Virus record (IMG/VR): IMGVR_UViG_3300048587_000172
Location: 1 to 57,392 of that record
DNA length: 57,392 nucleotides
Direction: 5' to 3' (one strand)
Source: a virus
Taxonomy: Duplodnaviria; Caudoviricetes
Shown here: positions 38,330-56,975 of the stretch, piece by piece
Layout: every line of letters begins with the position of its first letter
Numbering within the stretch: the stretch's first letter is position 1
Notes under the pieces: model-generated
Database searches by the model: none
The model's input: only the letters and a program-made list of their open reading frames with translations
Told to the model about the DNA's origin: nothing
Made by a program: the position numbers and the translations under genes

Positions 38330-38379
38330 TTAATAATTTGTAGTTATTGTTAGTTTCTATTTATTATATTGGAGATAGA

Positions 38380-38784
38380 ATGAAGTTATCTAAGTTCAAA
38401 GAACAAACTTCTGAAATTGAAGGTGTTTGGGTTGATGTTGGCGAAGGTGTACAATTAAAACTTGCACGCGCTGATAACTCTAGTTACCAAAAAGAAGTAT
38501 CTAAAATTCTTTTAGCTTCTTCTAGTGAATTACGTATCCTTCAAGATAGTAATCCTCGAAGGATGGAAATTATTCGTGAAGCAAGAATTAAAGCAATTTC
38601 ACGAACGATTCTTTTAGATTGGCGTAATCTGCAAGATGAAAACGGGAAGGAATTAAAATACTCGCCTGAGTTAGCTGAAAAGATTCTTGTTGAGTATAAA
38701 GAATTACTTGAATTAGTAGATGCTTTTTCTACTAATCGAGAAATGTATAAGGCTAAGCTTGACGAGGATTCCCGAAAAAACTAA
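38380..38784 (+). CDS. tail assembly chaperone (gpG-like)
   Basis: EGVWV, LARA.N, LLDW..L.DENG..L.YS; ends in slippery A-AAA-AAC. Confidence 0.85.
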   Translation: MKLSKFKEQTSEIEGVWVDVGEGVQLKLARADNSSYQKEVSKILLASSSELRILQDSNPRRMEIIREARIKAISRTILLDWRNLQDENGKELKYSPELAEKILVEYKELLELVDAFSTNREMYKAKLDEDSRKN

Positions 38785-39125
38785 GTGAGGTTTTACTTTG
38801 GTCATTAAAGTATGGACCTAATGTAGAATTTCTAAAAAGTGTAGATAGTGTGGACGGTGGTGGCATTCCTGATGTATTGCTAAACCGTCCACTTCTATAT
38901 CTTGATTTAGAAATTTACTGGGATGCTTTTATTGAACTTAGTAGAACCCGATCAATAGGTTTTGTAGCTAATCCAATTAATATAACCGATATCAGTAACT
39001 ACTTAGATTTTTTAGAAATTTATGTAATGTCTGAAAGACGAGAGTATGTTAAGTGGATTTGGTATCTTGATTCTATTTATATGAAATATCTTCAAGATAC
39101 AGAAAACAGTAAAAGGAAAAACTAA
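38781..39125 (+). CDS. tail assembly chaperone extension (gpT-like, -1 frameshift product)
   Basis: -1 frame open from the slippery site through ORF 38850..39125 (W.AF.EL.RTR..G...PI). Confidence 0.8.
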   Translation, partial: LSEVLLWSLKYGPNVEFLKSVDSVDGGGIPDVLLNRPLLYLDLEIYWDAFIELSRTRSIGFVANPINITDISNYLDFLEIYVMSERREYVKWIWYLDSIYMKYLQDTENSKRKN

Positions 39126-39126
39126 A

Positions 39127-41835
39127 ATGGCTGTTCTTTCTGTAGCTATCGACGCAATGAAAGCCAAGATTGGCGCAGCTATTTTTCAACAAGCAACTAC
39201 TACGGTTCAGCAGAGTGCAAATCAAGCTTCAAAAGCTGTAAACAATACTTCTAATGAAATACGTAAATTAGAAACCACTACTAAAAATCTTTCCACAACT
39301 GTAAAAACCTTAATTACTTCTTTAGGACTTTCAATTACTGTTGCAGGTATCCTAAAGATTCTAAGAGATTTTGAAACAGGTGTTGTAAACGTAGATAAAA
39401 TCGCTAAGTTTACATCTACTGATTTAGAGTATTTTGAAAAGAGAATTATTTCTCTTTCTACTGCAATTCCTTCTACTACAAATGAGTTATTAAAAATCTC
39501 ACAGGAAGCTGCGAGATTAGGTATTGAAGGTGTAAATAATATTGAATTATTTACTGAAACAATTGCTAAGCTAGATAAATCCTCTACAAGTCTAAAAGGT
39601 GCTGATGCTGCAACAAGTTTAGCTAGAATTTTGAATGTTACAAATGAGGATATAAGTGGAGTTAGAACGCTTGCCGGTGTTATTTTACGATTAGGTGATA
39701 CTACAACAGTCAATGAAGCAAAAATTGCTTCAATGGCTAAAGAAGTTGCACGCGCTGGTGCAATCTTTAAAGTATCTTCAACGGATATTGCAGGTATTAG
39801 CGCTGCTTTTGCTGATGCTGGTACAGAGGCTTCTGTAGCCGCTACCACTTTCGGTAAAGTGATGCGTACAATTGAATCAGCAGTTATCAAAGGCGGTAAG
39901 GAATTAGACTTACTTGCTAAGGTAGCTGGTATTTCATCTAAAGAATTAAAAGAACTTTGGAATAGTAATACCGCTGATGCTTTCGGACAATTGTTAAAAG
40001 GGTTATCAGATATTAAAAATTCCGGCGGTAGTGTATCTCAAATCTTAGAAGCTATTGGTATTAAAGATGAACGTATTTTAAGAACAATTCAACCACTTAT
40101 TTATAACTACAAATTATATGCAGAAGCTATTAAAACTGCGCGTGATGAACAAGCAAGAGGTACTTATTTAAATGAACTTCACGAAAAACAGTTACAAACC
40201 TTAGATAGTCAAATAACTATCCTGAGAACTTCTCTTGAAGCTGTTGTTCTTAATTTAAGAGATAGTACGGGAGATATAGCTAATTTTGTAAAGTATATTT
40301 CAGAACTTGTTCGATATGCTGGCGGAGTTAGCGAATTTGCAGACAATTCTAAAGAAGCTTCCATAGATGTAAAAATATTAGGTGAAGCGTTAAAATATGC
40401 TTCATTAATGGCAGCTTTATTAATAGCTAGTAAGATTGCTGGTTATATTGCGTCTATTGGAATCAATGCAAAAGGTGCATCACTTGCATTAACTTCTCAT
40501 GCAAAAGCTGTAGGGGTAGTAGCAGCGGCATACGCTGGTTGGGAATTGGGTAAATGGGCGCATGATAATTTCGGTGCTGTTAGAGAGAATGCTTTAGATA
40601 CTATTTTTGCTTTAGATATTGCTAAAGATGGTATATTAGATTTTTTTGATAGTAGTAAAGGTGGTGAATTAACAAAAGGTAGACAAGGTGGAAATAACGC
40701 TTTTGAAAATAGCCGTGAATACGCAATGGGTAGAAAGTGGCAGGAATGGGATAAAGAAAGAAGTAAAATCAACGATGTTGCAGATTCATTAAATAAAGGT
40801 GCGGATGCTGCTACTGAAATGAAAAACAGAATGGATGAATTACGAAATTCTGGTTTCAGTAATAATGAGGCAATGGATATTGCATTAGGTAATACTGATG
40901 CAACTGGTGTATTTTTACAACGTATAAAATCAAAGTTAGAAGACGTTAAGAAAGATACGGCAGCAGCTTATTTAAATCCGTTGCAAAAAGAACAGCTTGA
41001 AATGGCAAAGGAATTAGAAGAGTTATCCGGCGGTGAGTTGTCTAATACGAAAGAATATCTTGAATTACAAAGAGAAATCAATACGGAATTAGCCAAACAA
41101 CAAGCAATAGCTTTAGACGTTCAATTAAGAAATTCAAACGCAAACCTGATTCTTGATAATGATTTAAAACGTAGGTATTTTGGTAATGAATTAGCAATAC
41201 AACAGGAAATTTCTAATCAACGTCGTCAATATGGTGAATTAGGTATTGAACCTGATGCACAATCTATTGCAGCGTATGAAACTTTATTAAGGGAACAGCA
41301 AAAGGTTATTGAACGTTCGAATCAAATTAATAATATAGCGGAAGGGATTGGAGATTCCTTTGCAGACTCTTTTGATGATGCTATATTAGGTGCTAAATCA
41401 TTTGGAGAGGCTGTAGCTTCTTTAGCTTCTGATATTCAACGTTTATTATTACGTCAATTAGTTTCTCAACCTATTGCAAATGTATTAACAAGTGCTGTAG
41501 GTGGAATGTTTGGCGGAATTATTCCCTCTGCAAATGGTAACATCTTTCAAAATGGGGATGTAGTACCTTTTGCAAATGGTGGTATAGTAAACTCGCCATT
41601 TATGTTCAATCTTAACAACGGGAAACGTGGTTTAATGGGTGAAAATGGTCCGGAAGGAATTTTACCCTTAGAGCGCGGTAGTGACGGGAAATTAGGAGTA
41701 CGTTCTAATGGTTCTGGTGGTGGTAATACTATAGTTCATAATCATACTTGGAACATTAACACACCTAATGCCGATTCTTTCCGTAGAAGCAGTGTACAAA
41801 TCAGAAATGAAGCGCAACGCGCAGTGAGTGGTTAA
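39127..41835 (+). CDS. tape measure protein
   Basis: 902 aa, Ala-rich helical; C-terminal FANGGIV...GLMGE.GPE.I.PL. Confidence 0.93.
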   Translation: MAVLSVAIDAMKAKIGAAIFQQATTTVQQSANQASKAVNNTSNEIRKLETTTKNLSTTVKTLITSLGLSITVAGILKILRDFETGVVNVDKIAKFTSTDLEYFEKRIISLSTAIPSTTNELLKISQEAARLGIEGVNNIELFTETIAKLDKSSTSLKGADAATSLARILNVTNEDISGVRTLAGVILRLGDTTTVNEAKIASMAKEVARAGAIFKVSSTDIAGISAAFADAGTEASVAATTFGKVMRTIESAVIKGGKELDLLAKVAGISSKELKELWNSNTADAFGQLLKGLSDIKNSGGSVSQILEAIGIKDERILRTIQPLIYNYKLYAEAIKTARDEQARGTYLNELHEKQLQTLDSQITILRTSLEAVVLNLRDSTGDIANFVKYISELVRYAGGVSEFADNSKEASIDVKILGEALKYASLMAALLIASKIAGYIASIGINAKGASLALTSHAKAVGVVAAAYAGWELGKWAHDNFGAVRENALDTIFALDIAKDGILDFFDSSKGGELTKGRQGGNNAFENSREYAMGRKWQEWDKERSKINDVADSLNKGADAATEMKNRMDELRNSGFSNNEAMDIALGNTDATGVFLQRIKSKLEDVKKDTAAAYLNPLQKEQLEMAKELEELSGGELSNTKEYLELQREINTELAKQQAIALDVQLRNSNANLILDNDLKRRYFGNELAIQQEISNQRRQYGELGIEPDAQSIAAYETLLREQQKVIERSNQINNIAEGIGDSFADSFDDAILGAKSFGEAVASLASDIQRLLLRQLVSQPIANVLTSAVGGMFGGIIPSANGNIFQNGDVVPFANGGIVNSPFMFNLNNGKRGLMGENGPEGILPLERGSDGKLGVRSNGSGGGNTIVHNHTWNINTPNADSFRRSSVQIRNEAQRAVSG

Positions 41836-41836
41836 A

Positions 41837-42541
41837 ATGCCAGCAGAATTTCATGAAGTCAGAATAAAAGATAATTATAGTTTTGGTTCAAAAACTGGAC
41901 CGGGATTTTCTACGCGCGTTTTTCAACGTGATAGTGGATTCAATTCAAGACTTGCACGTTGGGAATATTCTCAACGTAAGTTTTCTATTAGCTATTCAAT
42001 TAGAAGTTTAGATGATATAGCGTATCTTCAACGTTTCTACCTTTGCAGAGGTGGTCCGTTATTTGGTTTTAGATTGAAGCATTTAGATGATTACACAACA
42101 GCACAAAATGGAAGAAATGCTCCTACGGCGTTAGATCAGCAAATCAGACCAATTGGAATGAGCGGTCAATATTATCAAATTGAAAAAGCTTATTTAGACG
42201 ATCAGGGATTTATTCGTTACCGTCCAATTACTAAACCAGTAGGTGGAACAGTATTAGTTGCTTTTGATGGTATTGTTCAAGTAAGTGGTTTTACAGTTGA
42301 TACTACGCAAGGTTTAATTAATTTCTCTTCTCCGGTTGATCCAGAAATAATAGTAACTTGTGGATGTGTATTTGATGTACCGGTTAGATTTGCAGAAAAT
42401 TTTACTATGTCAGCTTCAATTGATTCATTTGAAAGTGGTAGCGTAAATGTAGAGTTAGTTGAATTGATAGCTGAAAATTTGAATAAAAACTATGTTACAC
42501 CATTCCCTAATACCAATGATGAAACAGGTGGTATAGTATAA
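41837..42541 (+). CDS. distal tail protein, DUF2460-like, copy 1
   Basis: FHEVR, GP.FST, G...GFRLK...DY, RPITKPV.GTV, FDVPVRF. Confidence 0.85.
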   Translation: MPAEFHEVRIKDNYSFGSKTGPGFSTRVFQRDSGFNSRLARWEYSQRKFSISYSIRSLDDIAYLQRFYLCRGGPLFGFRLKHLDDYTTAQNGRNAPTALDQQIRPIGMSGQYYQIEKAYLDDQGFIRYRPITKPVGGTVLVAFDGIVQVSGFTVDTTQGLINFSSPVDPEIIVTCGCVFDVPVRFAENFTMSASIDSFESGSVNVELVELIAENLNKNYVTPFPNTNDETGGIV

Positions 42542-43935
42542 TGCAATTTCATGAAGTTTTATTTCCTCAACGATTAAGTTATGGTACTAGAGGCGGTCCG
42601 CGCTTTGATACTAACGTGATTATGACACGTAGAGGGAATGAAATTCGTGAAGCTAGAACTAGAAACCCGATTCGAGAATATGACGTAAGATGTACAACTT
42701 TTAATCGTGATGAATTAATTGAATTGTACAACTTTTTTATGGCTAGGAAAGGTTCTGTTTTTGGATTTAGGTTTCGTGATTACTTAGATTATTCTACAAA
42801 AATTAATGGTAGAGATATTCCCGGTAAAGATCATCCGTTATATATATATCCAGATGGAACTTTACAATTACAGAAATTGTATGAAGATGGTGGGTATTAT
42901 CATCGACGTTTAATATTTAAACCTATTGAAGGGTCTGTAGTAATTTACAGTGGTGATACTGTTTTAGTTGAAGGTGTTGATTACACTGTTAATTATGAAA
43001 ATGGAGTTGTTACACCTATTAATTCTTTATCTGGTGTAATGACTGGATGTTTATTTGATGTACCTGTTAATTTCGCGCCTGATACAGATAAGTTTTTCCA
43101 AATTGTTTTAGAAGATTATGATATCGGAAATGTTCAATCACTAAAATTGATTGAAATTAAACAGTTGATTCAAACATTACCTTCAATTGATGGTCCGGGT
43201 ACTGAAAATTATCCGGGACCGGGACCGGGTATAGCAGGTGGCGGTGGAAGCGATCCAGACCCCCTTCCCGGCTGTGTAACGTGTGGGGGTGGCTCTGACC
43301 CTTCCCCTGACTACGGAAGCACTCCACCGCCACAGGAACCGCCACCAGTGCCTATCCTGCCCGGTTGGTATGGGGTGTTTAACTGTGAGACAGGCGAGCA
43401 GGTGGCCAGCCGGATTTTTTCAAGTGATATTTCTGGATCATTACCGTGGTATTTTCGCGATGGGGAATCTGGCGATTGTTTTTATGTCACTGAAACAAGT
43501 GATGTATCACAAACCGAACCAGATGAAGGTGATAAAATTGTTTATGCAGTAAGTGTTGAAGATTGCGACGATGAAGGTTGTGATTGTTTACGTTGTCAAG
43601 CATGTTCAAATGAATTATGTCGTGAAACAGTCACATTGAAATATACTAATAACGATTCAAATAAAAACTTCGAGATACCTTTAGAATTAACCCCTAGTAA
43701 ATTGCAATGGGTAGGGAGTGATATTTCAGGCGGTCAAACACGAAATGTTACTTTATCGTGTACACATACCGGATTCGGTGTAATTATTGTTGGCTCAATC
43801 GTAGGTGGTGATTATTGGTCAATGGCAACCGGTGCATTTTGTCCAATCGGAACTTTTGATACGCACATTGGTTCACCCGGTTCGGGATCATTAGGAATTG
43901 CATCAAGTAATGGTGGTAATTTGCGTCTCGTTTAA
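42541..43935 (+). CDS. DUF2460-like copy 2 with Pro/Gly linker and Cys-rich C-terminal extension
   Basis: FHEVLFP, GGPRFDT, FF.ARKG...GFRFRD..DY, FDVPVNF, then ~240 extra aa. Confidence 0.85.
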   Translation: MQFHEVLFPQRLSYGTRGGPRFDTNVIMTRRGNEIREARTRNPIREYDVRCTTFNRDELIELYNFFMARKGSVFGFRFRDYLDYSTKINGRDIPGKDHPLYIYPDGTLQLQKLYEDGGYYHRRLIFKPIEGSVVIYSGDTVLVEGVDYTVNYENGVVTPINSLSGVMTGCLFDVPVNFAPDTDKFFQIVLEDYDIGNVQSLKLIEIKQLIQTLPSIDGPGTENYPGPGPGIAGGGGSDPDPLPGCVTCGGGSDPSPDYGSTPPPQEPPPVPILPGWYGVFNCETGEQVASRIFSSDISGSLPWYFRDGESGDCFYVTETSDVSQTEPDEGDKIVYAVSVEDCDDEGCDCLRCQACSNELCRETVTLKYTNNDSNKNFEIPLELTPSKLQWVGSDISGGQTRNVTLSCTHTGFGVIIVGSIVGGDYWSMATGAFCPIGTFDTHIGSPGSGSLGIASSNGGNLRLV

Positions 43936-44285
43936 TGCCATACGTACGTACACAACGTGATGATGAATTAGCCGCATTGCGATTAGCAATTCGTCGCGGT
44001 GAAATTAGTAGACCTAAACCGAAATTATCAAGTTTCGCGAAAGCTGCATTATTCGGAAAATATACTTCTCTTGAAATTGTGAACGAACGTATAGAGATTT
44101 GTAGAGAATGTGATAATTTCAAACCTTTTGACGAAACGAAAATAGAGGGTGCGTGTATTCGATGCGGATGTAAAGTTTCGAAAGAAGAAAAGTCTATTCG
44201 AAACTTAGCAGCATACGAAGAAAATTTGCCTGAATGGGGATGTAAACACAAACAACGTTCTTTAGGTAAAGGATGGAAAAGATAA
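43935..44285 (+). CDS. small Cys-rich protein
   Basis: R..IC..C, C..CGC, C...W. Confidence 0.7.
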   Translation: MPYVRTQRDDELAALRLAIRRGEISRPKPKLSSFAKAALFGKYTSLEIVNERIEICRECDNFKPFDETKIEGACIRCGCKVSKEEKSIRNLAAYEENLPEWGCKHKQRSLGKGWKR

Positions 44286-45160
44286 TGGCAATTCCACTTA
44301 CTACAATTCAACAAGAATATTTAGATGAAAGTAATGCTTTAACTTTCTGTAAGTTAATTAAAATTATCTGTAAAGATGGTACTGTTATTAGAATGACCGA
44401 TCATGATTCTGAATTAACCTTTAATGAAGAATTATATTTACCATTAGGTTCTGCAAATGCTTCCGCTGTACAAAGACCGTTAGGGTTAAGAGAGAGAAAT
44501 ATTGAATTTGTTGGAGTGTTAGAATCAGACGCGATTACACATGAAGATTTAAGAGCGGGTAAATATAGAGACGCAATCGTAAATATTTTCATTGTTAATT
44601 GGAAAACAATGACAATGGGTGCATTCAGAAATGATGTATTCTGGATTAATGATACTACATTTTCTGGTGATGAGTGGCAAGCTAAATTAGGTAGCCTTAG
44701 TTCATTTCTATCAAAACCAGTAGGTAGAATATACACTAGAACATGTAGGCATGTTTTAGGCGATTCAGGATGTAAAGTAGATTTAGAACCTTATACATTT
44801 ACTGGTGAAGTTATTGCTAGTGACCCTAAGCGTTCAACGTTTACCAGTGATTTAGATACTCAAGAGGATCATTATTTTTCACATGGCTATGTAATTTGGT
44901 TGACTGGCAATAATGCAGGCTATAAAACAGAGATATTTTCATATTTACAAGATGATGGCCACTTCATTTTGAAATTAGATACTAATAAAGATATCTTACC
45001 CGGCGACACTTTCAGCGCTATTGCAGGGTGTGATAGAGCAATTTTAACATGTAATGAGAAATTCGGTAATCAAACAAACTATGGTGGTTTTCCTTTTATA
45101 CCGGGAACTGATAAAATGTTAGAATCTCCGACACCCGGCGCACCGGTGATTGAATCATAG
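44285..45160 (+). CDS. DUF2163/BR0599-like tail tip hub protein
   Basis: TDHD..L, DL.AG.Y, C...LGD..C, GCD.....C..KF.N..N.GGFP.IPG.D. Confidence 0.9.
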   Translation: MAIPLTTIQQEYLDESNALTFCKLIKIICKDGTVIRMTDHDSELTFNEELYLPLGSANASAVQRPLGLRERNIEFVGVLESDAITHEDLRAGKYRDAIVNIFIVNWKTMTMGAFRNDVFWINDTTFSGDEWQAKLGSLSSFLSKPVGRIYTRTCRHVLGDSGCKVDLEPYTFTGEVIASDPKRSTFTSDLDTQEDHYFSHGYVIWLTGNNAGYKTEIFSYLQDDGHFILKLDTNKDILPGDTFSAIAGCDRAILTCNEKFGNQTNYGGFPFIPGTDKMLESPTPGAPVIES

Positions 45161-45167
45161 GTGAAAT

Positions 45168-45617
45168 ATGACAAAATCTGAAATTGTAGAAGAAGCGAAA
45201 ACTTGGATAGACACACCTTTTCATCATCAAGGTAGGCTTAAAAATTACATCAACGAGAAAGGTGAATTAAAAAAAGGTGGAGTAGACTGCGCAGGTATTA
45301 TTGTTGGAGTCTTAAACCACTTCAACATTAAACATAAAGACTATACAGGTTATACACGTGAAGAATCTTCACATATGATGTTGGACTCTTTGCAGTCGTC
45401 ATGTGAGAAAATAGAAGAATTAGAACCCGGTGCAATCGTTTTATTCTGGCAACGTAGATTTGAAAATACTAATCATATCGGCATTATGAGTGGATTTAAC
45501 ACTCTTATTCATGCCGATCAAAGACCGGGAATTAATAGAGTAACACTAATTCGAATCAACAATAAAATTCGTTCACAAATTCATTCAATTTACAGACTAC
45601 CGGGAGCGGTGGATTAA
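45168..45617 (+). CDS. NlpC/P60 tail-associated peptidase
   Basis: A..W..TPFHHQGR, GVDCAG, HIGI, IHA. Confidence 0.9.
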   Translation: MTKSEIVEEAKTWIDTPFHHQGRLKNYINEKGELKKGGVDCAGIIVGVLNHFNIKHKDYTGYTREESSHMMLDSLQSSCEKIEELEPGAIVLFWQRRFENTNHIGIMSGFNTLIHADQRPGINRVTLIRINNKIRSQIHSIYRLPGAVD

Positions 45618-48059
45618 ATGGCTACTCTTGCATTATTTGCAGCAGGTTCATTAGTTGGTTCAACTTTTGGAACATTCTCGTTTTTAGGTGCGACAATTAC
45701 AGGCGCTGCAATCGGCGGCGCTTTAGGTGGTGCCGTTGGCGGTATTGTTGATAGTATGTTTGTATATCCTGCTATATTCAAACAAAAGCAAGCAGATATT
45801 CAAGGTCCGAGATTAGATGATATTAGATTACAAACCGCTTCGGAAGGCTCACCTACTAATATTTGCTTTGGTCCGCAAAATCGAGTTGCAGGTACTTTAA
45901 TTTGGCGTAGTCAAATTTTTGAAGGTACAGACGAACAGAAAGTTTCTAGTGGTAGTGGGAAGAAAGGTCAATCATCTACTGTTACAACATCAGTTTTTTC
46001 TATTCATTGTGCTATCGCAATTTGCGAAGGTGATATTAACAACGTAATGAAGATATGGGCTGATAGTAAAGTTATTTATGATATAACCGGTGATACACCA
46101 ATTAAAGATTCAGAAGCGTTTGAATCTATGACTATTTATATGGGTACTGATACTCAAGAACCTGACCCTTTAATCCAATCATTTGAAACAGAAGAATCTA
46201 CACCAGCTTTTCGTGGTACTGCCTACGTAGTATTTGAATATCTGCAAATGGGTGTATTTGGAAATAGAATCCCACAATTTACTTTTCTAGTTCGTGGACA
46301 TAGTTCTTTAACAGTTGGTAGTTGTATTACTCGTCTTTTATATCGCGCGGGTATTTCTGGTGACAGGATTATTACATCTGCTTTAACTGCAAAAGAGGTT
46401 AAAGGGTACGCGCTTAGTGGACCACAAGAAACAAATCGTGCAATAGAATCTCTTCTTTTAACCTACGATATTCTTGCAAAAGAACGTAACGGTAAACTTC
46501 ATTTTTTTGAACGTGATGATAGTAGCTACGTAGAAGTATTAGAAGATGATTTAGCAGCGCATGAACCTAGCCAAGAAACACCTAAAGATATAACAGTAAC
46601 AGAAGTTGCAGATAGGCAACTTCCTAGCAGAGTTGTTTTTTCTTTTATTGATGAAGAAGCTGATTATGGTAGGGGTAGTATTAATGAACCTATCATCAAT
46701 TCTAATTTACCAATTATTGAATCGTATGATGTTCCGTTGGTAATGAATGCAGAAGATGCTAGGGCAATTGCACATAGGATGTTGTGGTCAAAGTATGCTG
46801 AACGTGGACAAATAGAAATTACATTACCACCAAAGTATATCAATATAGAAGAAGGGGATTTACTTTTAATTCAAAGTAAAGATGAAGTTTATTCTTCACG
46901 TATTAATGAACTGCAAATTGGTGATAATTACTTGATTCAAGTTCGCGCTACTTTGGAACAAATACAAACTTTAAGAAAACCTAACCTTCCATATCAACCA
47001 CCAAAACGTCCACCTAATACTGAACCTTATGAAGCGCCTGATTTACATGTTGAATTATTTACAATAGCTGCATTATCGGCTGAACACTATCAGAAGTTTG
47101 GAATTTATTACGCTATTGCTACAAAAAATAGTGATGGTGAAATAGATGGTAATGTAGCTTATCGTGGTGGAAAATTATATTCTTCTCCCGGCGGTTCTGA
47201 CTATGTTGAAATCGGAACTTTGCCGTCACGCGCACATATGGGAAAAGTTATTGATCCTATAGGATTAGAGTCTGTTGATATTTATGATGAATGGGATGAT
47301 ATTTCAGAATTAGTTGTGTACATGTATAGCGGCAAATTAGAAAGCCATCCTAAAGCTAGTGTTTATGCGTCTAATACTTTGAACAGAATGTTAGTTAATT
47401 TTGAAATGATCGCATTTGCGAATGCAGAATTAATTGACGAGAAAACTTATAAGCTTACAGGATTGTTGCGAGGGTTAAGAGGTACTGATTTCACTTTAGC
47501 AAATCACTCCGCTGATGAAAGAGTTATTCTTTTAACTAATTCTACTATAGGTTTTATTGAACTTACAAATAGTGAATATAATTATCCACCATATATCCGT
47601 GCGGTGCCGTATGGATCATTTGTAGGGGATGAAACAGATATATCACTATCTGGTTATGAAATTTGGCAGACTGCCGCGCCTTTACCAGTTGTGGATATTC
47701 AGCGCGATCCAAGTGAGGAACCTTTAACAAATGATTTATTTATTAAGTGGACTCGTCAAAGCCGCGCAATAATGCGAAGATTTGAAACTAAAAACGGCCC
47801 TAGACTTGATCCATTTGAAAAATATCGTGTACGATTTTATTCAGGTTCGTCGACGGAAGGTCCGTTTAGACAGGAAGTCATTGTAACTGTTAATATAAAC
47901 GATAATGATGATTACCCTCATTATTTATGGACTGCTGATGAACAGAGTGGGCACGGTCATACACCGGGTGATACTTGCACTGTAACAATAACTCCAATAT
48001 CTCCGTATGACATTCCAACTAGGCCGATTGCAATTCCAGCCGTTGAAGTATTCAATTAA
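45618..48059 (+). CDS. GTA-like central tail tip / host-specificity protein
   Basis: GPRL.D, RVAG.LIW, IWAD.K, PAFRG.AYVVF, GNRIP, L.GLLRG.RGT. Confidence 0.88.
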   Translation: MATLALFAAGSLVGSTFGTFSFLGATITGAAIGGALGGAVGGIVDSMFVYPAIFKQKQADIQGPRLDDIRLQTASEGSPTNICFGPQNRVAGTLIWRSQIFEGTDEQKVSSGSGKKGQSSTVTTSVFSIHCAIAICEGDINNVMKIWADSKVIYDITGDTPIKDSEAFESMTIYMGTDTQEPDPLIQSFETEESTPAFRGTAYVVFEYLQMGVFGNRIPQFTFLVRGHSSLTVGSCITRLLYRAGISGDRIITSALTAKEVKGYALSGPQETNRAIESLLLTYDILAKERNGKLHFFERDDSSYVEVLEDDLAAHEPSQETPKDITVTEVADRQLPSRVVFSFIDEEADYGRGSINEPIINSNLPIIESYDVPLVMNAEDARAIAHRMLWSKYAERGQIEITLPPKYINIEEGDLLLIQSKDEVYSSRINELQIGDNYLIQVRATLEQIQTLRKPNLPYQPPKRPPNTEPYEAPDLHVELFTIAALSAEHYQKFGIYYAIATKNSDGEIDGNVAYRGGKLYSSPGGSDYVEIGTLPSRAHMGKVIDPIGLESVDIYDEWDDISELVVYMYSGKLESHPKASVYASNTLNRMLVNFEMIAFANAELIDEKTYKLTGLLRGLRGTDFTLANHSADERVILLTNSTIGFIELTNSEYNYPPYIRAVPYGSFVGDETDISLSGYEIWQTAAPLPVVDIQRDPSEEPLTNDLFIKWTRQSRAIMRRFETKNGPRLDPFEKYRVRFYSGSSTEGPFRQEVIVTVNINDNDDYPHYLWTADEQSGHGHTPGDTCTVTITPISPYDIPTRPIAIPAVEVFN

Positions 48060-48310
48060 AAATACCTAGTAGTAATCAGGTACTTTTGTTGATGTTTTGT
48101 CTTTGGATTCTGAAAACACCTTATAGACTGGGTAAGTTTCACGGTAGATTTCCAGTGATTGTAAGTGCTGTAAATTTACCGTGAATTTCCTTAAGTTCTT
48201 ATGGAATATATACTTATATATACAATACAAATACAATACTCCTATATACCCTGTTTTAGAAAGAGAAGAAGATATAGCGAAAGTTCCGGCAGACCATCAG
48301 GTATTTTTAA
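48056..48310 (+). ncRNA. rod-like non-coding element, copy 2
   Basis: 12-bp terminal IR TTAAAAATACCT/AGGTATTTTTAA; 3' arm near-identical to 17373-17436; internal hairpin 48138-48186. Confidence 0.6.
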
Positions 48311-48408
48311 CATGCGAAACCTTAAACGTTAAAAACAATCAAAAGACGATACAGAGATAGAGTAGCCGACACCTATCGGTTACTTACAGATAAAACCGGA
48401 AAATTTTC

Positions 48409-48437
48409 TTGACAACGGGTTAATAAACAAGTAAAGT
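48409..48437 (+). promoter_or_regulatory. sigma70-type promoter of replication operon
   Basis: TTGACA-N17-TAAAGT. Confidence 0.75.
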
Positions 48438-48487
48438 GAACTATTCAATGATAGTTGTGATACAGTCAAATTTTGATAGGTAATTTT

Positions 48488-50677
48488 ATGTCGATTTCAA
48501 TCACTGAATTAATAAAAGATTCAACACACACAAATCATATGGTTTTAGAACCATTATGCACCGCAACAAAAACACTTTTTGAATTTCCAGAATTAGCAGA
48601 TAACATTGTCTGTAATATTGAACTGGATGAATCAGGTGAAGATTTTATAGTCGAACCTTTTGAATTATTTGCAGTTGATGAAAATGATGATGGCAAATTA
48701 TGCCGTTGCGGATATCCAAAAGATACGTGGATGCACAATCCATTAAGCGCAAACAATCATTCATTTTACGAAGCGCACAAAATTCAACTTGGCGATAAGT
48801 GGTATTATCCTAAGAATAATTTATTACCTTATAACGCGAAGAATTGGGTAAGAAAAGTACCCGAAAGAGAAGTTTTAAAAAACAATAATAATGGCTGGAA
48901 ATTAGCAGGTACAGATTTTTCGGCATTAATTATTCAACACGCTTGGAAACCGTTTCAACTTCATTTCAGTGACGACGCAAAATTATTGTACGATTTTCTT
49001 TTGTTACGGTTATACAAACAAACCAAATTTGCAGCGAACGTAGCGCGATTTAAGGTTGAAGGTGTATTACCTTCACTTCCTGATGAATTTATAGACCATC
49101 CAGAATTACCATTAGCGCCGTATCAAAAAGCAGCAGTTGGATTGTTATTAAAAGTTGATGGTTCTGGTTTGTGGATGGAACCGGGAACAGGTAAGACTGC
49201 AACATCAATTGCGCGGATGATGACAGAAGCGCGAATGAAACAAAAAGGATTATTAGGTAATTCTAAAGTAATGTATCGCGCATTAATCGTCTGTCCAAAT
49301 CAGGTTCGATATAACTGGCAATCTGAATTTAATCGTTTTGCGACACTACCCGGTAAATGTGCAGTTGTCCGCGGAGATTCATTACGTCGTCAAAAAACAA
49401 TCTACGACTCAATTCGGCAAGAAACAGATTGTAGTTGGAGCGCTACAATCATTGGAATGGATACACTAGGTAGAGAAGAAGTTTTGCAGTCTATTCCGTG
49501 GGATATTGTAGTTGTAGATGAAGCGCATAATTTTAAGCAACCGTCTACAAAACGTTGGAAAGCGCTTAGGGAGTATGTGGAACTACCGAATGTTAAATCA
49601 CGTATTGAATTAACTGGTACACCAATTCCAAATAGTTTACTTGATTTGTGGACGCAACTTGAATTTATGGGGAAAGGGTTATCTGGATTTAAAAAATACG
49701 ATAATTTTCGAAACTTCTATGGGGTATTTGAAGAATCTTATGATACTGCCGGTCGGGAACATCTAGTTTCATATCAAAATGTTCCTTTACTGCAAGAGAG
49801 ATTAACCCGGCTTTGTTACATGGTAACAAAGCAAGAGGCTAATCTACAATTGCCTGATAAATTAGAAGATGTTATTGAAATTGAAATGTCGTCAAAACAG
49901 TCGAAAGCATATCAAACTTTGTTAAAGACTGTTATGTTAGAGATTGAACAAGATTTATCTTTGATTCAATCTGGTAAAAAAACAATGACCGCTGAACATG
50001 TATTAACTAAGTTAATGCGGTTGGCGCAGATAACCAGCGGATTTTATACTCTTGATCCTATTTACAATCAAGATACTATGGATTTGATTTCTGCTAAAGA
50101 AGTAATTCAAATAGATGAAGTTAATCCAAAGGTGAAAGTGATAATTGATAGTATCAAAGAAGATTTGTATAATGATAAACTAGGTAAAAAAGTTATATGG
50201 GCATGTTTTGTTGAAGATATACGAATACTTAGCCAAGAGTTGAAAAAAGCAGGAATTAATCATGTAGGCTATCATCGTATGTGTGATATTGATTTTAGAG
50301 TACCTACAGCAAGGGATGCAGAACAAAAATTAAATTGTGATGAAAATTGTGATGTATTTATCGGTAATGCGCAAAGTAGTGGTGAAGGAGTTAATTTTCT
50401 AGGTTATGATAGAGAAAACCCTGATTCACATAATCGTTATGTAGATCATATGTTTTTTATGTCGTCCAATTGGCGAGCGGTTTTACGGCAACAAGCAAAA
50501 GATCGCGCGCATAGACGAGGTTCTCGTTGCCCGTCATTGCGAATTACAGATATTATCGTACCCGGTACAGTTGATGAAGAAATTCGTAACAAGCTGCTTA
50601 AAAAGCAAGCGGATGCAGCTACTATTCAAGATGTAAGACAGATTTTAAATGCGTTAGTAGGATTTCAAAATGGATAA
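48488..50677 (+). CDS. SNF2-family helicase
   Basis: MEPGTGKT, VVDEAH, LTGTP, GEGVN, QAKDRAHR.G. Confidence 0.92.
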   Translation: MSISITELIKDSTHTNHMVLEPLCTATKTLFEFPELADNIVCNIELDESGEDFIVEPFELFAVDENDDGKLCRCGYPKDTWMHNPLSANNHSFYEAHKIQLGDKWYYPKNNLLPYNAKNWVRKVPEREVLKNNNNGWKLAGTDFSALIIQHAWKPFQLHFSDDAKLLYDFLLLRLYKQTKFAANVARFKVEGVLPSLPDEFIDHPELPLAPYQKAAVGLLLKVDGSGLWMEPGTGKTATSIARMMTEARMKQKGLLGNSKVMYRALIVCPNQVRYNWQSEFNRFATLPGKCAVVRGDSLRRQKTIYDSIRQETDCSWSATIIGMDTLGREEVLQSIPWDIVVVDEAHNFKQPSTKRWKALREYVELPNVKSRIELTGTPIPNSLLDLWTQLEFMGKGLSGFKKYDNFRNFYGVFEESYDTAGREHLVSYQNVPLLQERLTRLCYMVTKQEANLQLPDKLEDVIEIEMSSKQSKAYQTLLKTVMLEIEQDLSLIQSGKKTMTAEHVLTKLMRLAQITSGFYTLDPIYNQDTMDLISAKEVIQIDEVNPKVKVIIDSIKEDLYNDKLGKKVIWACFVEDIRILSQELKKAGINHVGYHRMCDIDFRVPTARDAEQKLNCDENCDVFIGNAQSSGEGVNFLGYDRENPDSHNRYVDHMFFMSSNWRAVLRQQAKDRAHRRGSRCPSLRITDIIVPGTVDEEIRNKLLKKQADAATIQDVRQILNALVGFQNG

Positions 50678-51053
50678 AAGTTTAGAATCAAGAGTATTTA
50701 TTCCTGAACCATTACCTTTAAAGTCAAATGGACGAGAAATCAATTTTAACTTAATCGAAAATGAAGTTAAAAATTTTGGAGAGTTAAAAATTTTATGTCC
50801 TGTTATGCTAAGTCCGTTTGATCCTAATACATCAATGTCATTGATTGCGGAGAAATTAGAGCATTATAATTATGATGCTGATACTGATTATGTTTTGATG
50901 TATGGTAGAGTATTAGTTTTAGCTTATATGTTGACTGTAGTATTTCATTCAACATCCTCAAATATCAAAATGATTCTTCATAGTAGGAGAAATGAAGAAA
51001 CATCTTATACAGTTAAAGAAATCGACGGTTCGTTTACTGAAATTCTTAAATAA
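50670..51053 (+). CDS. hypothetical protein
   Basis: 127-aa ORF overlapping the helicase stop. Confidence 0.7.
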   Translation: MDKSLESRVFIPEPLPLKSNGREINFNLIENEVKNFGELKILCPVMLSPFDPNTSMSLIAEKLEHYNYDADTDYVLMYGRVLVLAYMLTVVFHSTSSNIKMILHSRRNEETSYTVKEIDGSFTEILK

Positions 51054-51076
51054 AGTTAGAGAAAGTAAGGTAGAAT

Positions 51077-51649
51077 ATGGCTGATATTAAACCCGTTGCG
51101 TCGCGTCCCTGTACTTCTGAAATTGGTAGAGAAGTACAAGCTTTATTTACTAAGTTTGAACAGTCTCGTTTGAACTTCATAGAAATCAGAAGTAAAGTAT
51201 CTTCTTTTATTAAGAAGAATGAAACCGACTTATCTGATTTAGTAGATATCGGTTTTCTTTATCGTGAATTAAGCGTTCGCGCTGATGAAATGAGAAAAGA
51301 TTGTAATGCAATGTTAGAATTATTGGCAAAGATACTTTGTCATAATGTTGCAAAGCGTAGTATAGAATTGGGTAATGTTTTAGTAGAACCAAAAGGTGTA
51401 TTAGCAACTGCAAATTGTGAGATTCAAGAAGTTGCACAATGCCCCTTAAACGGTACACCAGAATATACTATGGTGTTGACACATTTAGGGGTGAAAGATC
51501 AATTGCTGTTAGATACTGGAATGTTGAAAATTGATTGGAATAAATTCCAAGAATATATTCAACTTTGTAATGAATCTGGTAAACCACTTCCACCGGGTAT
51601 TACTAAGAAATGGGAAGTAGCTAAGGTAACGTACAGACGAAAACATTAA
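51077..51649 (+). CDS. hypothetical replication-module protein
   Basis: 190-aa ORF, AAGG RBS. Confidence 0.7.
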   Translation: MADIKPVASRPCTSEIGREVQALFTKFEQSRLNFIEIRSKVSSFIKKNETDLSDLVDIGFLYRELSVRADEMRKDCNAMLELLAKILCHNVAKRSIELGNVLVEPKGVLATANCEIQEVAQCPLNGTPEYTMVLTHLGVKDQLLLDTGMLKIDWNKFQEYIQLCNESGKPLPPGITKKWEVAKVTYRRKH

Positions 51650-51725
51650 CTGAGTTTAAGTACGAATTGAAATAGCGCGTCGTTTCGTACTATTAAAAAT
51701 GTGCGCTAAAAAAGAGGATAGTGTT

Positions 51726-52634
51726 ATGGCAAAGATGAAAGCAGATCGTACAGAAGAATCAACGGATATTACACGTGTAAATCCATCATTTCTTGCAGAG
51801 TATGCAGAACAGGATGATTCATTAGCTTTGATGGGTGGGTATCGAATTATCCCACGTATTAAGGTAATTCAAGGTCAAACTTCACAAGATTTGAAGAAGC
51901 AGTTTGGTGAAGGATCAGCAATTTTGCGTCCGGGTGATTCATTGGTTGCAAAACAGGATCAATCATTCCTGTTCAATCCTTATGTATTTATTCCGGAGTT
52001 TTGCAAGTGGGCAGACCGAAAAGACCCTGAACAACGTGTTATCATTGACCGTTCTTATGATCCTACTTCAGCGCTGGCGAAACGCGCCACAAGTAAAAAT
52101 CCTGATGATAGGATTGAATTGTATCCGGGAGATGAGAAGTTAAACGAAAAGGATAAGAAGTATTTCAAGTGGGTTGAGCATTTGAATTTTATCGGTGCAA
52201 TTTATGGTGAACATGAATTGGCCGGACAAATCATTGCGATTTCGTTTTCACGCGGTGAATACATGCAGGGAAAGGCTTTCATCAATGCCTGTATGCGCCG
52301 GACGATTGTAACTGAATTGTCGAATGGGCAGCGTAAAAAGGTTCAAGCGCCTCTTTGGTCGCAAATCTGGCAGATTACACCAGCGCAGGGACAATCCCGA
52401 ATTAAATCCAAAGGTTCATGGTTTGGTTTGGATTATAAAGCGCCAGAAGGTGATATCAATCCTTTTGTTACTTCCGAAGAAGCAAAAGTATTGCGTGAAA
52501 CTTACAATGAACTTAAACGCGATCAGCAAGAGAACCGGTTGCGTGTGGATCATGACAGCGCTGGTGAAGATCAGGGTAGTAGTGAATCCGACGCCGATGT
52601 AGAGGCGGTGGAACAAGCTAACGGAAAATACTAA
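51726..52634 (+). CDS. putative single-stranded DNA-binding protein
   Basis: Between helicase and primase; IPRIKVIQ N-terminus, GSWF, acidic tail ending in an aromatic residue. Confidence 0.55.
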   Translation: MAKMKADRTEESTDITRVNPSFLAEYAEQDDSLALMGGYRIIPRIKVIQGQTSQDLKKQFGEGSAILRPGDSLVAKQDQSFLFNPYVFIPEFCKWADRKDPEQRVIIDRSYDPTSALAKRATSKNPDDRIELYPGDEKLNEKDKKYFKWVEHLNFIGAIYGEHELAGQIIAISFSRGEYMQGKAFINACMRRTIVTELSNGQRKKVQAPLWSQIWQITPAQGQSRIKSKGSWFGLDYKAPEGDINPFVTSEEAKVLRETYNELKRDQQENRLRVDHDSAGEDQGSSESDADVEAVEQANGKY

Positions 52635-52688
52635 TACATTTTCCGTTAGGGTTAGTTAGATAGATAGACAGAAGTTAGTTGTAAGTAG

Positions 52689-52737
52689 AAGCTAGATAGG
52701 TAATAATAGATGTTGTTACCTATCTAGCTTTGTTTTT
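52689..52737 (+). terminator. intrinsic terminator
   Basis: 19-bp stem 52689-52707/52712-52730 followed by TGTTTTT. Confidence 0.75.
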
Positions 52738-52748
52738 AGGAATGTGCA

Positions 52749-55616
52749 ATGGCGAAGAATAACCGTAGTCGCATTGAAAATGTAGATGCGATAAAGGAAT
52801 TGGATCGGTTAAATGTAAAGTATGAAAATGCAGGAGAAAATGAAGTTAGATTACTATGTCCGGTACATGGTGATAAATCGCCTAGCTGCTGTTTAAACAC
52901 AGAAAAAAATGTTTGGCGTTGCCCTGTTTGTAAAGAACATGGTGATATTGCTACATTGATTGCGTATCTAGAGAAAAAAGATAAAAATAGTGTATTAGCT
53001 GATTTAGCAACACGATATGATATTGCTGGTGCAAATCTAATAAGTCTGGAACTAATTGAAAAATACCATAACAATATATGGGATTCAGGTAATCTATTAA
53101 ACGAATTATATAAACGTGGTATTAGCGATCAAATGATCCGCCATGCACGGTTAGGGGTATCTGGTGATAGGATAACCATTCCTATCTATGATCGTCATAA
53201 CAACTGTTTAAACGTTCGTAAGTATCTTCCCGGTGCGGCAGGTAGATTGAAGATGCGTAACGCTTCTTCCCACGGTAAGGCAGCTTTATACAGACCAGCA
53301 GATACAGGATATGAACAGGTTTGGATATGTGGTGGTGAATTAAAAGCGTTGGTAGTAGGGGAAATGTTAAAATCGGAAGGAATTGGCGCTGTAGCAGGTA
53401 GTGCGGGTGAAGGGGCATGGAATGATGAGTGGACGGAACTATTAGCTGATAAATATCTGTACGTATGTCTCGATATTGACAATGCAGGCAAAGCAGCGGC
53501 AATGAGTTTGGCCGGTAGGTTCTGGTCTAAAGCCAAAAAGGTATATATTATCAATATACCTTTAGATGAGAAGAAATACCCTAAAGGTGATATTAACAAC
53601 TTCATTGCAGAAGGCGCAGGAAAGAAAGAACTTTTGCAGTTGATGAAAGCAGCAGAACCTTATTCACCGCCACAACTAGATAGTGATATTGATGATAGCG
53701 AACAAATACCTAAGATGGTTCGATTAGTAGATGCGCCAGTTAGTGAAAATATAGGAATGAGGATAGGAGTTAAAGCGGTTATTTCAGTGATGGATGAAAA
53801 CCCTTATCTCATTCCTGAAAAAGTAGGATGCTCTTGTGATAGAGCGCAACCAAATTGTTTTCAATGTCCAGTGTACACTAAAAAACCGGATGATAAAGGT
53901 ATAGTACAGATTACAATTCGTTCTACATCTTCTGGTATCCTGCAAATTGCAGAAGCGCCGGAAAGTATACAACAAAAAGCAATTCAAAAAGCATTGCGTA
54001 TACCGCCCTGCAAAGCGGTTACTTTTGCGATTTACAGCCACTATAATCTTTATGATTGTAGGTTGATACCGCAATTAGCTATCAGTGGGGATAACTCCGA
54101 TCATGTGGTTATGCCTGCTATGATTATTGGTAGAGGATTAAAAACTAACACCCCTTATTGTTTTAGCGGTAGGGTATATGCGTCCCCTACAGATCAAAAA
54201 GCTACGCTACTGTTAGATAAGATGGAACATACGGAAGATTCTCTATCTACTTTCAAACCAGAAGATGATGCGATCAAAGATTTAGAGATATTCCAAGCTA
54301 AGGATGATTCTTACGAAGCGATTGAAGAAAAATTAAACCATATCTACGACGATCTAGAAAGTAATGTTACTCAAATTTTTTGTCGAAGGGATATCCATAA
54401 AGCTATTGATTTTACATACCATTCCTCTTTGAATTTTATATTTGATGGTCATATTCAAAAAGGTTGGGTAAATACTTTAGTCATTGGCGATTCTTCGCAA
54501 GGTAAGACAGAACTATCAACTCGTCTTTTACGTCATTATGTAGTAGGAGAATTAATACCTTGTAAAGTAGTGTCTAAGGTAGGTTTAATCGGTGGTGTAG
54601 ATAGTGGACCAAACCAACGAAAATATATTTCGTGGGGTGCTATTCCTATTCATGATAAAAGGCTTCTATTCTTAGAAGAGTTTAAGGGAGTATCAACTGA
54701 TATCATATCTAAGATGACCGACATGCGGTCTAGCGGAGTAGCTGAAATTACTATGATTGAAAAGAGAAAGGCGCATGCGCGCACTCGATTAGTATTTTTA
54801 ACAAATGCTAGATCGGAACGTGCAATATCTTCTTTTTCATTTGGTATTGAGGCTATTAAGGAATTAATGGGAGCCTTAGAAGATATTAGACGAATTGACT
54901 TGGCAGTTATCTTATCAGCACAACAAGTAGATTCAAAAATTATTAATACAATAGCTAAGGATCGTAAGGAAGTAGAACATATCTACGAATCTGATTTATG
55001 TAGATTGCTTGTATTATGGGCTTGGACTAGAAATGAAAATCAAATTGTTTTTGAACCGGATGCAATAGATGAGTGTCTGATTCAAGCTAATAGATTGTGT
55101 GGAAAGTTCCATGAAAGCTTACCTTTGATTGATAGAGGGACAACGAAATTCAAAATAGCACGTTTAGCGGTAGGATTAGCGGCTAGATTATTCTCTACGA
55201 CTAAAGACTTACAATCTATACGAGTTTGTAAGTCTCATATAACGTATATTGCAGATTATATTGACCGTATATACTCCGATCAGACTTTTGGTTATGCAGA
55301 CTACTCAAAAGCTCAAGAGTATCGCAATAAAATTCTAGACCCTAAAATCGTAGAGAAGAATCTACTAGATTTGCAGTTTGCAAAAGATATGGTAGAACAT
55401 CTACTACATGCAGACGAAATTCAACCTAACGATCTATGTGATTGGGGAGATTTAGATAGAGATAGTGGACAAAAACTACTGTCTTTATTGGTTCGGAAAC
55501 ATGCGATTTATCGTAATCGAAAGTCATATTCGAAAAGTAGTGAATTTATTGGAATGTTAAAACGTTTACAAAAAGATGCGCTGAATCAAGATGAATCAGA
55601 TGATTCTAAATACTAA
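52749..55616 (+). CDS. CHC2 Zn-finger/TOPRIM primase fused to MCM-like AAA+ helicase
   Basis: CPVH.D..PS..C..C; RITIPI; LDIDNAG DxD; KGD; C.C..C..C; IGDSSQGKT, FLEEF, RTRLVFLTN, RRID. Confidence 0.85.
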   Translation: MAKNNRSRIENVDAIKELDRLNVKYENAGENEVRLLCPVHGDKSPSCCLNTEKNVWRCPVCKEHGDIATLIAYLEKKDKNSVLADLATRYDIAGANLISLELIEKYHNNIWDSGNLLNELYKRGISDQMIRHARLGVSGDRITIPIYDRHNNCLNVRKYLPGAAGRLKMRNASSHGKAALYRPADTGYEQVWICGGELKALVVGEMLKSEGIGAVAGSAGEGAWNDEWTELLADKYLYVCLDIDNAGKAAAMSLAGRFWSKAKKVYIINIPLDEKKYPKGDINNFIAEGAGKKELLQLMKAAEPYSPPQLDSDIDDSEQIPKMVRLVDAPVSENIGMRIGVKAVISVMDENPYLIPEKVGCSCDRAQPNCFQCPVYTKKPDDKGIVQITIRSTSSGILQIAEAPESIQQKAIQKALRIPPCKAVTFAIYSHYNLYDCRLIPQLAISGDNSDHVVMPAMIIGRGLKTNTPYCFSGRVYASPTDQKATLLLDKMEHTEDSLSTFKPEDDAIKDLEIFQAKDDSYEAIEEKLNHIYDDLESNVTQIFCRRDIHKAIDFTYHSSLNFIFDGHIQKGWVNTLVIGDSSQGKTELSTRLLRHYVVGELIPCKVVSKVGLIGGVDSGPNQRKYISWGAIPIHDKRLLFLEEFKGVSTDIISKMTDMRSSGVAEITMIEKRKAHARTRLVFLTNARSERAISSFSFGIEAIKELMGALEDIRRIDLAVILSAQQVDSKIINTIAKDRKEVEHIYESDLCRLLVLWAWTRNENQIVFEPDAIDECLIQANRLCGKFHESLPLIDRGTTKFKIARLAVGLAARLFSTTKDLQSIRVCKSHITYIADYIDRIYSDQTFGYADYSKAQEYRNKILDPKIVEKNLLDLQFAKDMVEHLLHADEIQPNDLCDWGDLDRDSGQKLLSLLVRKHAIYRNRKSYSKSSEFIGMLKRLQKDALNQDESDDSKY

Positions 55617-55625
55617 AGGTGAAAT

Positions 55626-56123
55626 ATGGAATTAATTAGTCGACAAGATATGGTTAATAGATTTATGGAAAAGTATGGTATTAAAGGAAAGACTGATTTA
55701 AAAATTGTAGATAATTATGATAAGTCAAGACTTGTGAATATTCGAATAGACTTATTATTTTTAGCTACATACTTTAAAAGTAAAGCGGCAAATTTTACTA
55801 ATCCTCATACTACTATACAATGGAGACTTCATCTACTATTTAATGAATTAGAAGAATTATTAGATGCGATTTTAAATAAACCAGAACATGAAGTCTCACA
55901 CGAATTAGCAGATTTAGCTTATGTAATCGAAGGTTTTGCAGTTAATATGGATATCCCTTTTGATAGAATTTTTCTAGAAATACATAATTCTAATATGACG
56001 AAAGACTTGACACTTAGTGATATCAATTGTGCAACACGTGGAAAAACAGGATCATTTTGTAAGCCAGATATCGAACCGATAATTAAACTTCATCGTCAAT
56101 TAAATAATCAAGAAAAGGAATAA
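55626..56123 (+). CDS. MazG-like nucleoside triphosphate pyrophosphohydrolase
   Basis: ELEEL, ELADLAYV..G, EIH.SNMTK, KPDI. Confidence 0.85.
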   Translation: MELISRQDMVNRFMEKYGIKGKTDLKIVDNYDKSRLVNIRIDLLFLATYFKSKAANFTNPHTTIQWRLHLLFNELEELLDAILNKPEHEVSHELADLAYVIEGFAVNMDIPFDRIFLEIHNSNMTKDLTLSDINCATRGKTGSFCKPDIEPIIKLHRQLNNQEKE

Positions 56124-56128
56124 CTGTT

Positions 56129-56974: not shown

Positions 56975-56975
56975 T

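Follow-up and report, generated by a model that had tools for sequence, protein, structure and literature searches.

The phage record IMGVR_UViG_3300048587_000172 of the IMG/VR collection, which belongs to an uncultivated member of the Caudoviricetes, is considered here over its whole length of 57,392 bp (the window). Two homologous copies of a long rod-like element, copy 1 at 17166-17436 and copy 2 at 48056-48310, stand between its genes, each just behind the last gene of a long block read from one strand. The two copies share an extended pairing, the mismatches between their arms are biased towards wobble pairs of one strand, and they contain no coding signal. The reading tentatively preferred here is that the rods may be cis-acting RNA elements of the plus strand that mark the boundaries of gene blocks, as 3′-end, processing or insulator elements.

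Structure and homology of the two copies

Copy 2 is predicted to fold into a long imperfect hairpin. Its RNA minimum free energy (MFE) is -68.6 kcal/mol, shuffles average -49.1 (z -4.03), and none of 200 was as low. An earlier description of copy 2 made from the sequence alone (the original prediction) had named its parts, and these were found again: the closing helix 48056-48067/48299-48310, seen in the sequence as a perfect 12 bp; a second helix of 10 pairs, including U.G pairs, between 48082-48091 and 48275-48284; a GGA bulge at 48105-48107, flanked by the paired segments 48100-48104/48262-48266 and 48108-48115/48254-48261; an internal hairpin of 14 bp (48138-48151/48172-48185) and 5 bp (48153-48157/48166-48170); and a tandem repeat, ATACA in 3.8 copies at 48220-48239 (+). 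As had been claimed, copy 1 has this GGA bulge too: an RNAalifold consensus of both sequences places it at 17216-17218. Perfect 12-bp inverted repeats within 300 nt are not rare in the window, where 36 k-mer hits were counted; 100 first-order Markov simulations gave 2.4 on average. A lone repeat of this kind is not significant on its own, and the case is therefore carried by the extended pairing and by the homologous second copy.

The conserved 3′ cores of the two copies (17368-17436 and 48242-48310) are 69 nt long, 87% identical and in direct orientation, with the start-to-start spacing of 30,874 bp that had been reported for them. Within the cores 30 nt are exactly identical, and a 15-nt purine run is adjoined by AT-rich simple repeats in both copies. 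The homology is that of the whole element, as profiles of the 5′ arm, of the 3′ core and of the full length each find these two places alone (E <= 5e-14); copy 2 is a genuine paralogue of copy 1, with homology from end to end. Conservation is uneven along that length, being much lower outside the 3′ core, and the hairpin at 17227-17275 in copy 1 shows no sequence relationship to the apical one of copy 2. The nhmmer profiles found no third copy in the window. With up to 3 mismatches allowed, a 19-nt segment of the core is met there twice, where 0.04 occurrences are expected, and a 9-nt end motif has 31 matches at 1 mismatch against 18.4 expected, without any pattern. A trans-acting antisense role was considered and rejected, as the 19 nt of core match nowhere else in the window on either strand at up to 3 mismatches.

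Shared pairing and strand bias

The consensus of the two copies consists of 57 pairs, and the outer stem was extended by one further helix in the register of copy 1. In the resulting shared outer stem of 44 pairs, 85 of the 88 cells are paired; shifting the 3′ partners by 1-3 columns lowers the paired share to 47.7-62.5%. Invariant pairs number 30, another 8 differ on one side by a Watson-Crick/wobble change, 3 differ on both sides yet stay paired, and 3 are open in copy 2. This structure was derived from the same two sequences on which it was counted. In a less circular test the 5′ arm was aligned to the reverse complement of its own 3′ arm with all mismatches scored alike, and the transition mismatches between the arms were 19 of G.U type versus 4 of A.C type; the two types should be equally frequent in a DNA palindrome that decays neutrally. 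Copy 1 folds at -71.3 kcal/mol on the plus strand and at -49.7 on the minus strand. When DNA parameters are used, copy 1 has a z of -1.21 and loses its closing helix, and the z of copy 2 drops to -2.81. Taken together, the outer stem kept in both copies, the excess of G.U-type mismatches and the weaker folds predicted with DNA parameters favour, as far as predicted folds can tell, elements that act as plus-strand RNA.

Sequences of a related strain were encountered in wastewater DNA. Contigs of this strain were compared over 38000-57392 and are mostly at least 90% alike, and the strain carries both copies. Its copy 1 differs by 17414 G>A, which turns a U.G pair into U-A, and by 17424 C>T, which turns G-C into G.U; its copy 2 differs by 48277 G>A, again U.G to U-A. 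All three changes keep their pairs, an outcome estimated to arise about 30% of the time for random helix transitions and hence consistent with RNA without being proof of it. Directly 3′ of copy 2, the 67 nt at 48320-48386 are swapped in the strain for 68 unrelated letters between flanks that are alike (joint 48319 to 48387, in sequencing runs X1 and X3).

Position relative to genes, promoters and terminators

Copy 2 had been placed between the last tail gene and the replication promoter, and this position is upheld: the element begins on the stop codon of the tail gene (45618-48059) and ends 98 nt ahead of a promoter-like site (48409-48437) in front of the replication block. Copy 1 begins 2 nt past the stop of the open reading frame (ORF) 16772-17164 and fills the gap to the next gene. 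The start of either copy is thus at most 6 nt from the stop codon of the last gene in a long same-strand block. The next sigma-70-like promoter overlaps the 3′ arm in copy 1 and lies downstream in copy 2. The site in copy 1 (17416-17443) has its -35 hexamer inside the core and its -10 hexamer just outside the repeat; at the equivalent place in the alignment copy 2 differs in both hexamers and has no promoter match. Promoter-like matches in general are not enriched over shuffles (70 vs 82, 61 vs 85 and 61 vs 72) and serve as leads only.

Neither of the two intergenic gaps holds a canonical terminator-like hairpin, and hairpins of that type occur elsewhere in the phage at 18032-18049, 34811-34842 and 52688-52731; the last of these has 20 bp and a T-rich tail and separates ORF 51699-52634 from ORF 52749-55616. 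A promoter-like region (TTGACA-16-TAGTAT) ahead of small ORFs is itself present in two 54-nt copies, 76% identical, at 18058-18111 and 18718-18771, with a third similar match at 19747-19774.

Searches in other genomes

In Rfam searches with gathering thresholds, no family fell on either element, and in E-value mode every match in the two regions was at least 21.9 bits below its gathering score. An exact 21-mer of the core gave one chance match in IMG/VR, with unrelated flanks; a degenerate 33-nt core pattern gave 0 matches there; and a 22-mer gave two matches in species-representative genomes, again with unrelated flanks. Among GenBank phages the nearest are uncultured Caudoviricetes at ~40% protein identity, and no relative at the DNA level was found for 47000-49500 or for the element itself. 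The regulator and tail proteins that border the copies have no close relative in IMG/VR, and the helicase has no homologue above 47% identity. Loci around related helicases were drawn from 477 pattern matches; a relative is encoded in 399 of these, and 80 loci were retained. The element was not found in these 80 loci by blastn (best E 0.18) or nhmmer, nor by nhmmer in 4 related full records; the original prediction had named relatives with one or no copy among the findings that would refute it, and the count in these is 0 copies.

Three of the 80 loci (L012, L018 and L019) have a 2.4-kb ORF, a gap of 519-524 nt and then the helicase, and the structures in their gaps differ from the rod. The tail-to-helicase gaps of L012 (3230-3330) and L018 (3205-3300) contain GC-rich structured stretches with similar-looking motifs, after an intrinsic-terminator-like hairpin, and these may be a separate non-coding RNA. 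In the closest full relative (G003, the record of locus L007) the gaps 12882-13005 and 25216-25351, one of them a single small gene upstream of the helicase, share a 141-nt AT-rich segment, 69.5% identical, which looks like a repeated AT-rich regulatory region and not like a rod. The complete 75.9-kb relative (G001, the record of L012) has a GC-rich element of ~50-70 nt, unrelated in sequence to the rods, in at least 5 intergenic places and in both orientations (6653-6716, 13899-13954, 28323-28391, 41698-41760 and 66199-66274).

A proposed plus-strand RNA boundary element

In the preferred reading the rods would be paralogous structured RNAs of ~255-275 nt, read on the plus strand, and each would form the untranslated end of the transcript from a long block of same-strand genes. 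The first block would be that of replication and nucleotide metabolism, ending at 17164, and the second that of the regulator, the small genes and the structural genes, ending at 48059. A read-through transcript could then fold into a long, interrupted double-stranded rod directly ahead of the promoter of the next block. Such a rod may be a substrate for a double-strand-specific RNase, presumably the RNase III of the host, and it may also, or instead, be a 3′-terminal structure that blocks exonucleases and damps read-through; in either case the mRNAs of neighbouring modules would be held apart. The nearly invariant, purine-rich 3′ arm would be the sequence-specific part that is recognised, and the 5′ arm would need complementarity alone. 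Transcription, cleavage or protection, and an effect on gene expression are what we infer from the arrangement described above.

Several observations weigh against this scheme. The fold of copy 1 is the weaker one, at -71.3 kcal/mol against a shuffle value of -61.6 (z -2.16, with 4 of 200 shuffles as good), and its z-score stays modest across two computations (-2.2 to -2.7). For both copies the MFE structure has an ensemble frequency of 0.0001, and their apical parts have no common structure. Shuffling is a weak control of the outer stem when two sequences are available, and here 67 of 500 shuffles reached the percentage paired and 160 of 500 the covariation score. A strand-biased mutation rate could inflate the G.U-type count. 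In a separate scan of both strands copy 2 has a z of -5.20 on the minus and -5.22 on the plus strand, about as significant on one as on the other, so that the strand argument is carried mostly by copy 1 and the mismatch count. Pairing alone does not explain why 30 nt of the 3′ arm are exactly identical. No promoter-like site of at least 10/12 lies just upstream of either rod, and transcription therefore depends on the assumed read-through. The basal stem beside the U run is AT-rich and closes ~230 nt, which would make a poor intrinsic terminator. Since no relative with the element was found, no wider covariation is available. Among the sequencing runs listed for the sequence there is none of RNA; the sole run that contains it, a wastewater DNA run represented by contigs, accounts for 0.22 of the sampled words.

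Comparison with known systems

The rods can be compared with three kinds of known element. The first are the promoter-early stem-loop (PeSL) cassettes of T4-type phages, described as a repeated intergenic stem-loop together with a sigma-70-like promoter (PMC2839356; PMC4122927). The stem-loops are described as terminators against transcriptional spill-over between modules (PMC2839356), and this precedent is counted as support for the boundary-element reading. The rods resemble PeSLs in being repeated intergenic stem-loops with a sigma-70-like promoter and direct copies. They differ in size, since PeSL stem-loops are short and the rods are ~255-275 nt; in number and placement, since PeSLs occur in large numbers, on either side of individual small ORFs within hyperplastic regions, and the two copies here enclose 30.9 kb; and in lineage, there being no sequence similarity between the two and the phages belonging to different lineages. 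Moreover, the promoter is part of the repeat in PeSLs, whereas here only copy 1 overlaps one, and with its -10 outside the repeat.

The second are the RNase III sites of phage T7. These are imperfect intercistronic hairpins in long same-strand transcripts, present in several related copies per genome (about ten), several-fold shorter than the present rods and located inside transcription units, and their cleavage leaves a protective 3′ hairpin. The rods are likewise imperfect hairpins between cistrons of long same-strand blocks, and, if transcribed, their predicted helices of up to 14 bp and interrupted outer stem of 44 pairs would provide the extended double-stranded RNA of an RNase III site. 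Unlike the T7 sites they number two and stand at block boundaries, their cleavage is a matter of prediction, and no RNase III domain is encoded in the window.

[quoted passage not shown] Correia elements form a hairpin when transcribed, can carry a promoter at their end, and are bound or cut by RNase III (PMC2649163). The terminal inverted repeats of the rods, their predicted hairpin when transcribed, their intergenic and non-coding nature and the end promoter in copy 1 recall such elements. They are unlike them in that no target duplication is apparent, two copies were found, conservation is uneven and the wobble bias is that of one strand. In the collections searched, the rods lack the dispersed other copies of MITEs; they also lack the promoter within the repeat of PeSLs, and at gathering thresholds no Rfam family matches them.

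A bolder version of the preferred reading, which we regard as a long shot, is that the rods represent an undescribed kind of phage cis-RNA. A double-stranded ‘punctuation mark’ of ~260 nt would stand at each of the two boundaries between modules in a genome coded on one strand, a factor from the host or the phage would read the invariant purine-rich arm so as to separate or time the two halves of the genome, and the simple repeats at the apex would let the structure vary.

Alternative explanations

The most serious alternative, unlikely in our estimation, is that a MITE-like non-autonomous mobile DNA element was inserted twice, so that the rod is nothing but its folded terminal inverted repeats and the promoter of copy 1 a by-product of the end of the element. 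The size of 255-275 bp, the non-coding sequence, the intergenic location and the terminal repeat agree with the definition of MITEs in PMC11602168, where MITEs in phage genomes are also mentioned, as rare. Terminal repeats of at least 10-15 bp are found in copy 2, with its 12 bp, and in copy 1, where 10 of the 12 positions are Watson-Crick and 2 are G.T. The end promoters and the RNase III binding or cutting of Correia elements (PMC2649163) would suit the rods as well. Against this, no target-site duplication of 2-10 bp is visible and the flanks differ between the copies; copy 2 has TTAA at either end, a palindrome that might belong to the repeat or to a duplication, and the left end of copy 1 has none. 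Dispersed copies are wanting: there are two in the window and no true match in IMG/VR, in the species-representative genomes, in the 80 loci or in the 4 relatives. The divergence is very uneven along the element, the related strain has both copies, and an excess of G.U-type mismatches is not expected when an inverted repeat decays neutrally.

Quite unlikely is a region that binds protein at the DNA level, with the core as an operator for the helix-turn-helix (HTH) regulator or as one of two replication origins. The 30-nt exact identity points to sequence-specific recognition, and the reading fits with the Xre-type HTH gene that follows copy 1, whose promoter-like -35 is within the core, and with the replication genes that copy 2 precedes. 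The core is not palindromic, however, unlike typical HTH operators; the distance to the promoter differs, from an overlap in copy 1 to ~100 nt downstream of copy 2; and the diverged 5′ arm, with its pairing kept by wobbles, is left unexplained. As for origins, phages with two related ones are known, such as SPP1 with oriL and oriR, and the AT-rich repeats lie beside a purine run of 15 nt in which an RNA-DNA hybrid could be held, yet no GC skew switch occurs at either copy and a better-looking iteron region exists elsewhere (2731-2762).

The original prediction had suggested that recombination between the cores, which are direct repeats, would divide the genome into a circle of 30.9 kb and what is left, separating its halves within the life cycle. 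We consider this very improbable. The direct orientation, the core of 69 nt with its 30 exactly identical nucleotides and arcs that would be roughly equal in a genome of ~67 kb are in its favour, as is the recombination of T4-type intergenic cassettes into small circles, although those mini-circles span 1-4 ORFs (PMC2839356). No match to Phage_integrase (PF00589) or Resolvase (PF00239) is present in the window, the record being 86% complete. Homology spans the whole element, unlike the core-limited identity of att-like sites, and each product would probably be without essential genes. The check for junctions did not bear the idea out, as the contigs of run X1 show parental arrangements alone, with two loose ends at 48247 and 48284 that are copy-1 flanks; rare junctions are invisible in contigs. 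Nor did the proposed skew analysis, the GC skew being positive in all 56 windows without a switch at the copies. The copies, expected to be roughly antipodal in a genome of ~60-62 kb, would be only roughly so with arcs of ~30.9 and ~35.8 kb in a genome of ~66.7 kb.

It is hardly credible, finally, that the core belongs to a small protein gene, with a short and basic product in one frame and a long fold that would be the messenger of a gene resembling type-I toxins. The purine-rich core is open in two frames, copy 2 has a 43-codon frame that starts with ATG (48201-48329), and of the 7 nucleotide differences on the 3′ side of the exact core, 4 are silent in one frame (Ser/Ser via two changes, Gly/Gly and Pro/Pro). 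In copy 1, however, none of the start codons ATG, GTG and TTG opens either frame, and one of the two is interrupted by an in-frame TGA; in both frames the upstream portion is made of simple repeats, with N-terminal halves unrelated between the copies; no ribosome-binding motif lies ahead of the ATG of copy 2; no homologue of the 43-aa product was found; and the same changes are matched in the 5′ arm (alignment pairs 27-249, 28-248 and 17-260). The template and variable repeats of a diversity-generating retroelement were rejected, as the window has no RVT_1 match, the repeat lies past a stop codon and the differences are not adenine-specific.

Genome layout and other features of the record

The record is classed as linear and 86% complete (CheckV), which by arithmetic implies a full genome of ~66.7 kb. 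A contig of the related strain reaches 201 nt past the end of the window, so that the record is incomplete. Its GC content is 35%, a simple greedy ORF call places 73 of 76 genes on the plus strand, and the GC skew was computed in 56 sliding windows. The gene layout in Table 1 was read from PHROG and Pfam matches. A search with the T7-type polymerase family RNA_pol gave no match in the window, but control genomes gave none either, which makes it uninformative.

Table 1. Location of the two rod-like elements, their parts and the surrounding genes and signals in the window
Feature	Position	Strand	Details
Copy 1, whole element	17166-17436	+	RNA MFE -71.3 kcal/mol; nhmmer E 1.9e-77
ACT tandem repeat of copy 1	17347-17371	+	8.7 copies, where copy 2 has the ATACA repeat
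Conserved 3′ core of copy 1	17368-17436	+	
Copy 2, whole element	48056-48310	+	RNA MFE -68.6 kcal/mol; two-copy nhmmer profile E 4.3e-68
Closing helix of copy 2, 5′ half	48056-48067	+	overlaps TAA stop of tail gene, 48057-48059
Apical hairpin of copy 2	48138-48185	+	14 + 5 bp, then T-rich stretch
Conserved 3′ core of copy 2, purine-rich 3′ arm	48242-48310	+	87% identical to 17368-17436
Sigma-70-like promoter match overlapping 3′ arm of copy 1	17416-17443	+	TTGACC-16-TATAAT, 11/12
Sigma-70-like promoter match ahead of helicase gene	48409-48437	+	TTGACA-17-TAAAGT, 10/12, consensus match only
Intrinsic-terminator-like hairpin 3′ of HTH regulator gene	18032-18049		
DNA ligase, tRNA, methyltransferase, thymidylate synthase, ribonucleotide reductase, endonuclease-like ORF	1-17164		
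tRNA	4965-5047		single Rfam match at gathering thresholds in whole window
HTH regulator and small ORFs	17460-20900		behind sigma-70-like promoter matches
Xre-like HTH regulator, first gene past copy 1	17460-18002	+	HTH_31 E 3.4e-07, HTH_3 E 5.2e-05
Large terminase through to tail protein	~20935-48059		
Last tail gene	45618-48059		phrog_4271 tail protein, E 4.4e-127
SNF2 helicase and primase/helicase	48473 to window end		
SNF2 helicase gene	48473-50677		

Other structured or repeated stretches were noted in the window. The 209-nt gap at 2581-2789 is strongly structured (RNA z about -5.4 to -6.0) and contains three distinct hairpins, each of 12-14 bp, and behind them a 10-nt direct repeat in three copies (2731-2762) at a spacing of 11 nt; this motif is met 5 times in the whole window, where 0.65 occurrences are expected, and the gap looks like an iteron-type origin or operator region. 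A further structured gap at 8596-8847 (z about -3.4 to -3.8) holds a near-perfect palindrome with arms of ~17-21 bp around 8717-8766, and a long inverted repeat lies just 3′ of the ribonucleotide reductase gene at 16141-16214. Within ORF 26612-28720 there is a tandem duplication of ~168 nt, 72% identical, at 26954-27265.

Implications

The element is known from one uncultivated phage lineage alone, and its general importance is limited accordingly. Were the preferred reading of the rods as RNA boundary elements true, they would be a large and sequence-unrelated addition to the few boundary cassettes known from phages, such as the RNase III sites of T7 and the PeSLs of T4-type phages. If the rods define transcript ends or are cleaved, they would indicate how a phage that is read from one strand can separate its temporal gene classes without canonical terminators at the main boundaries.

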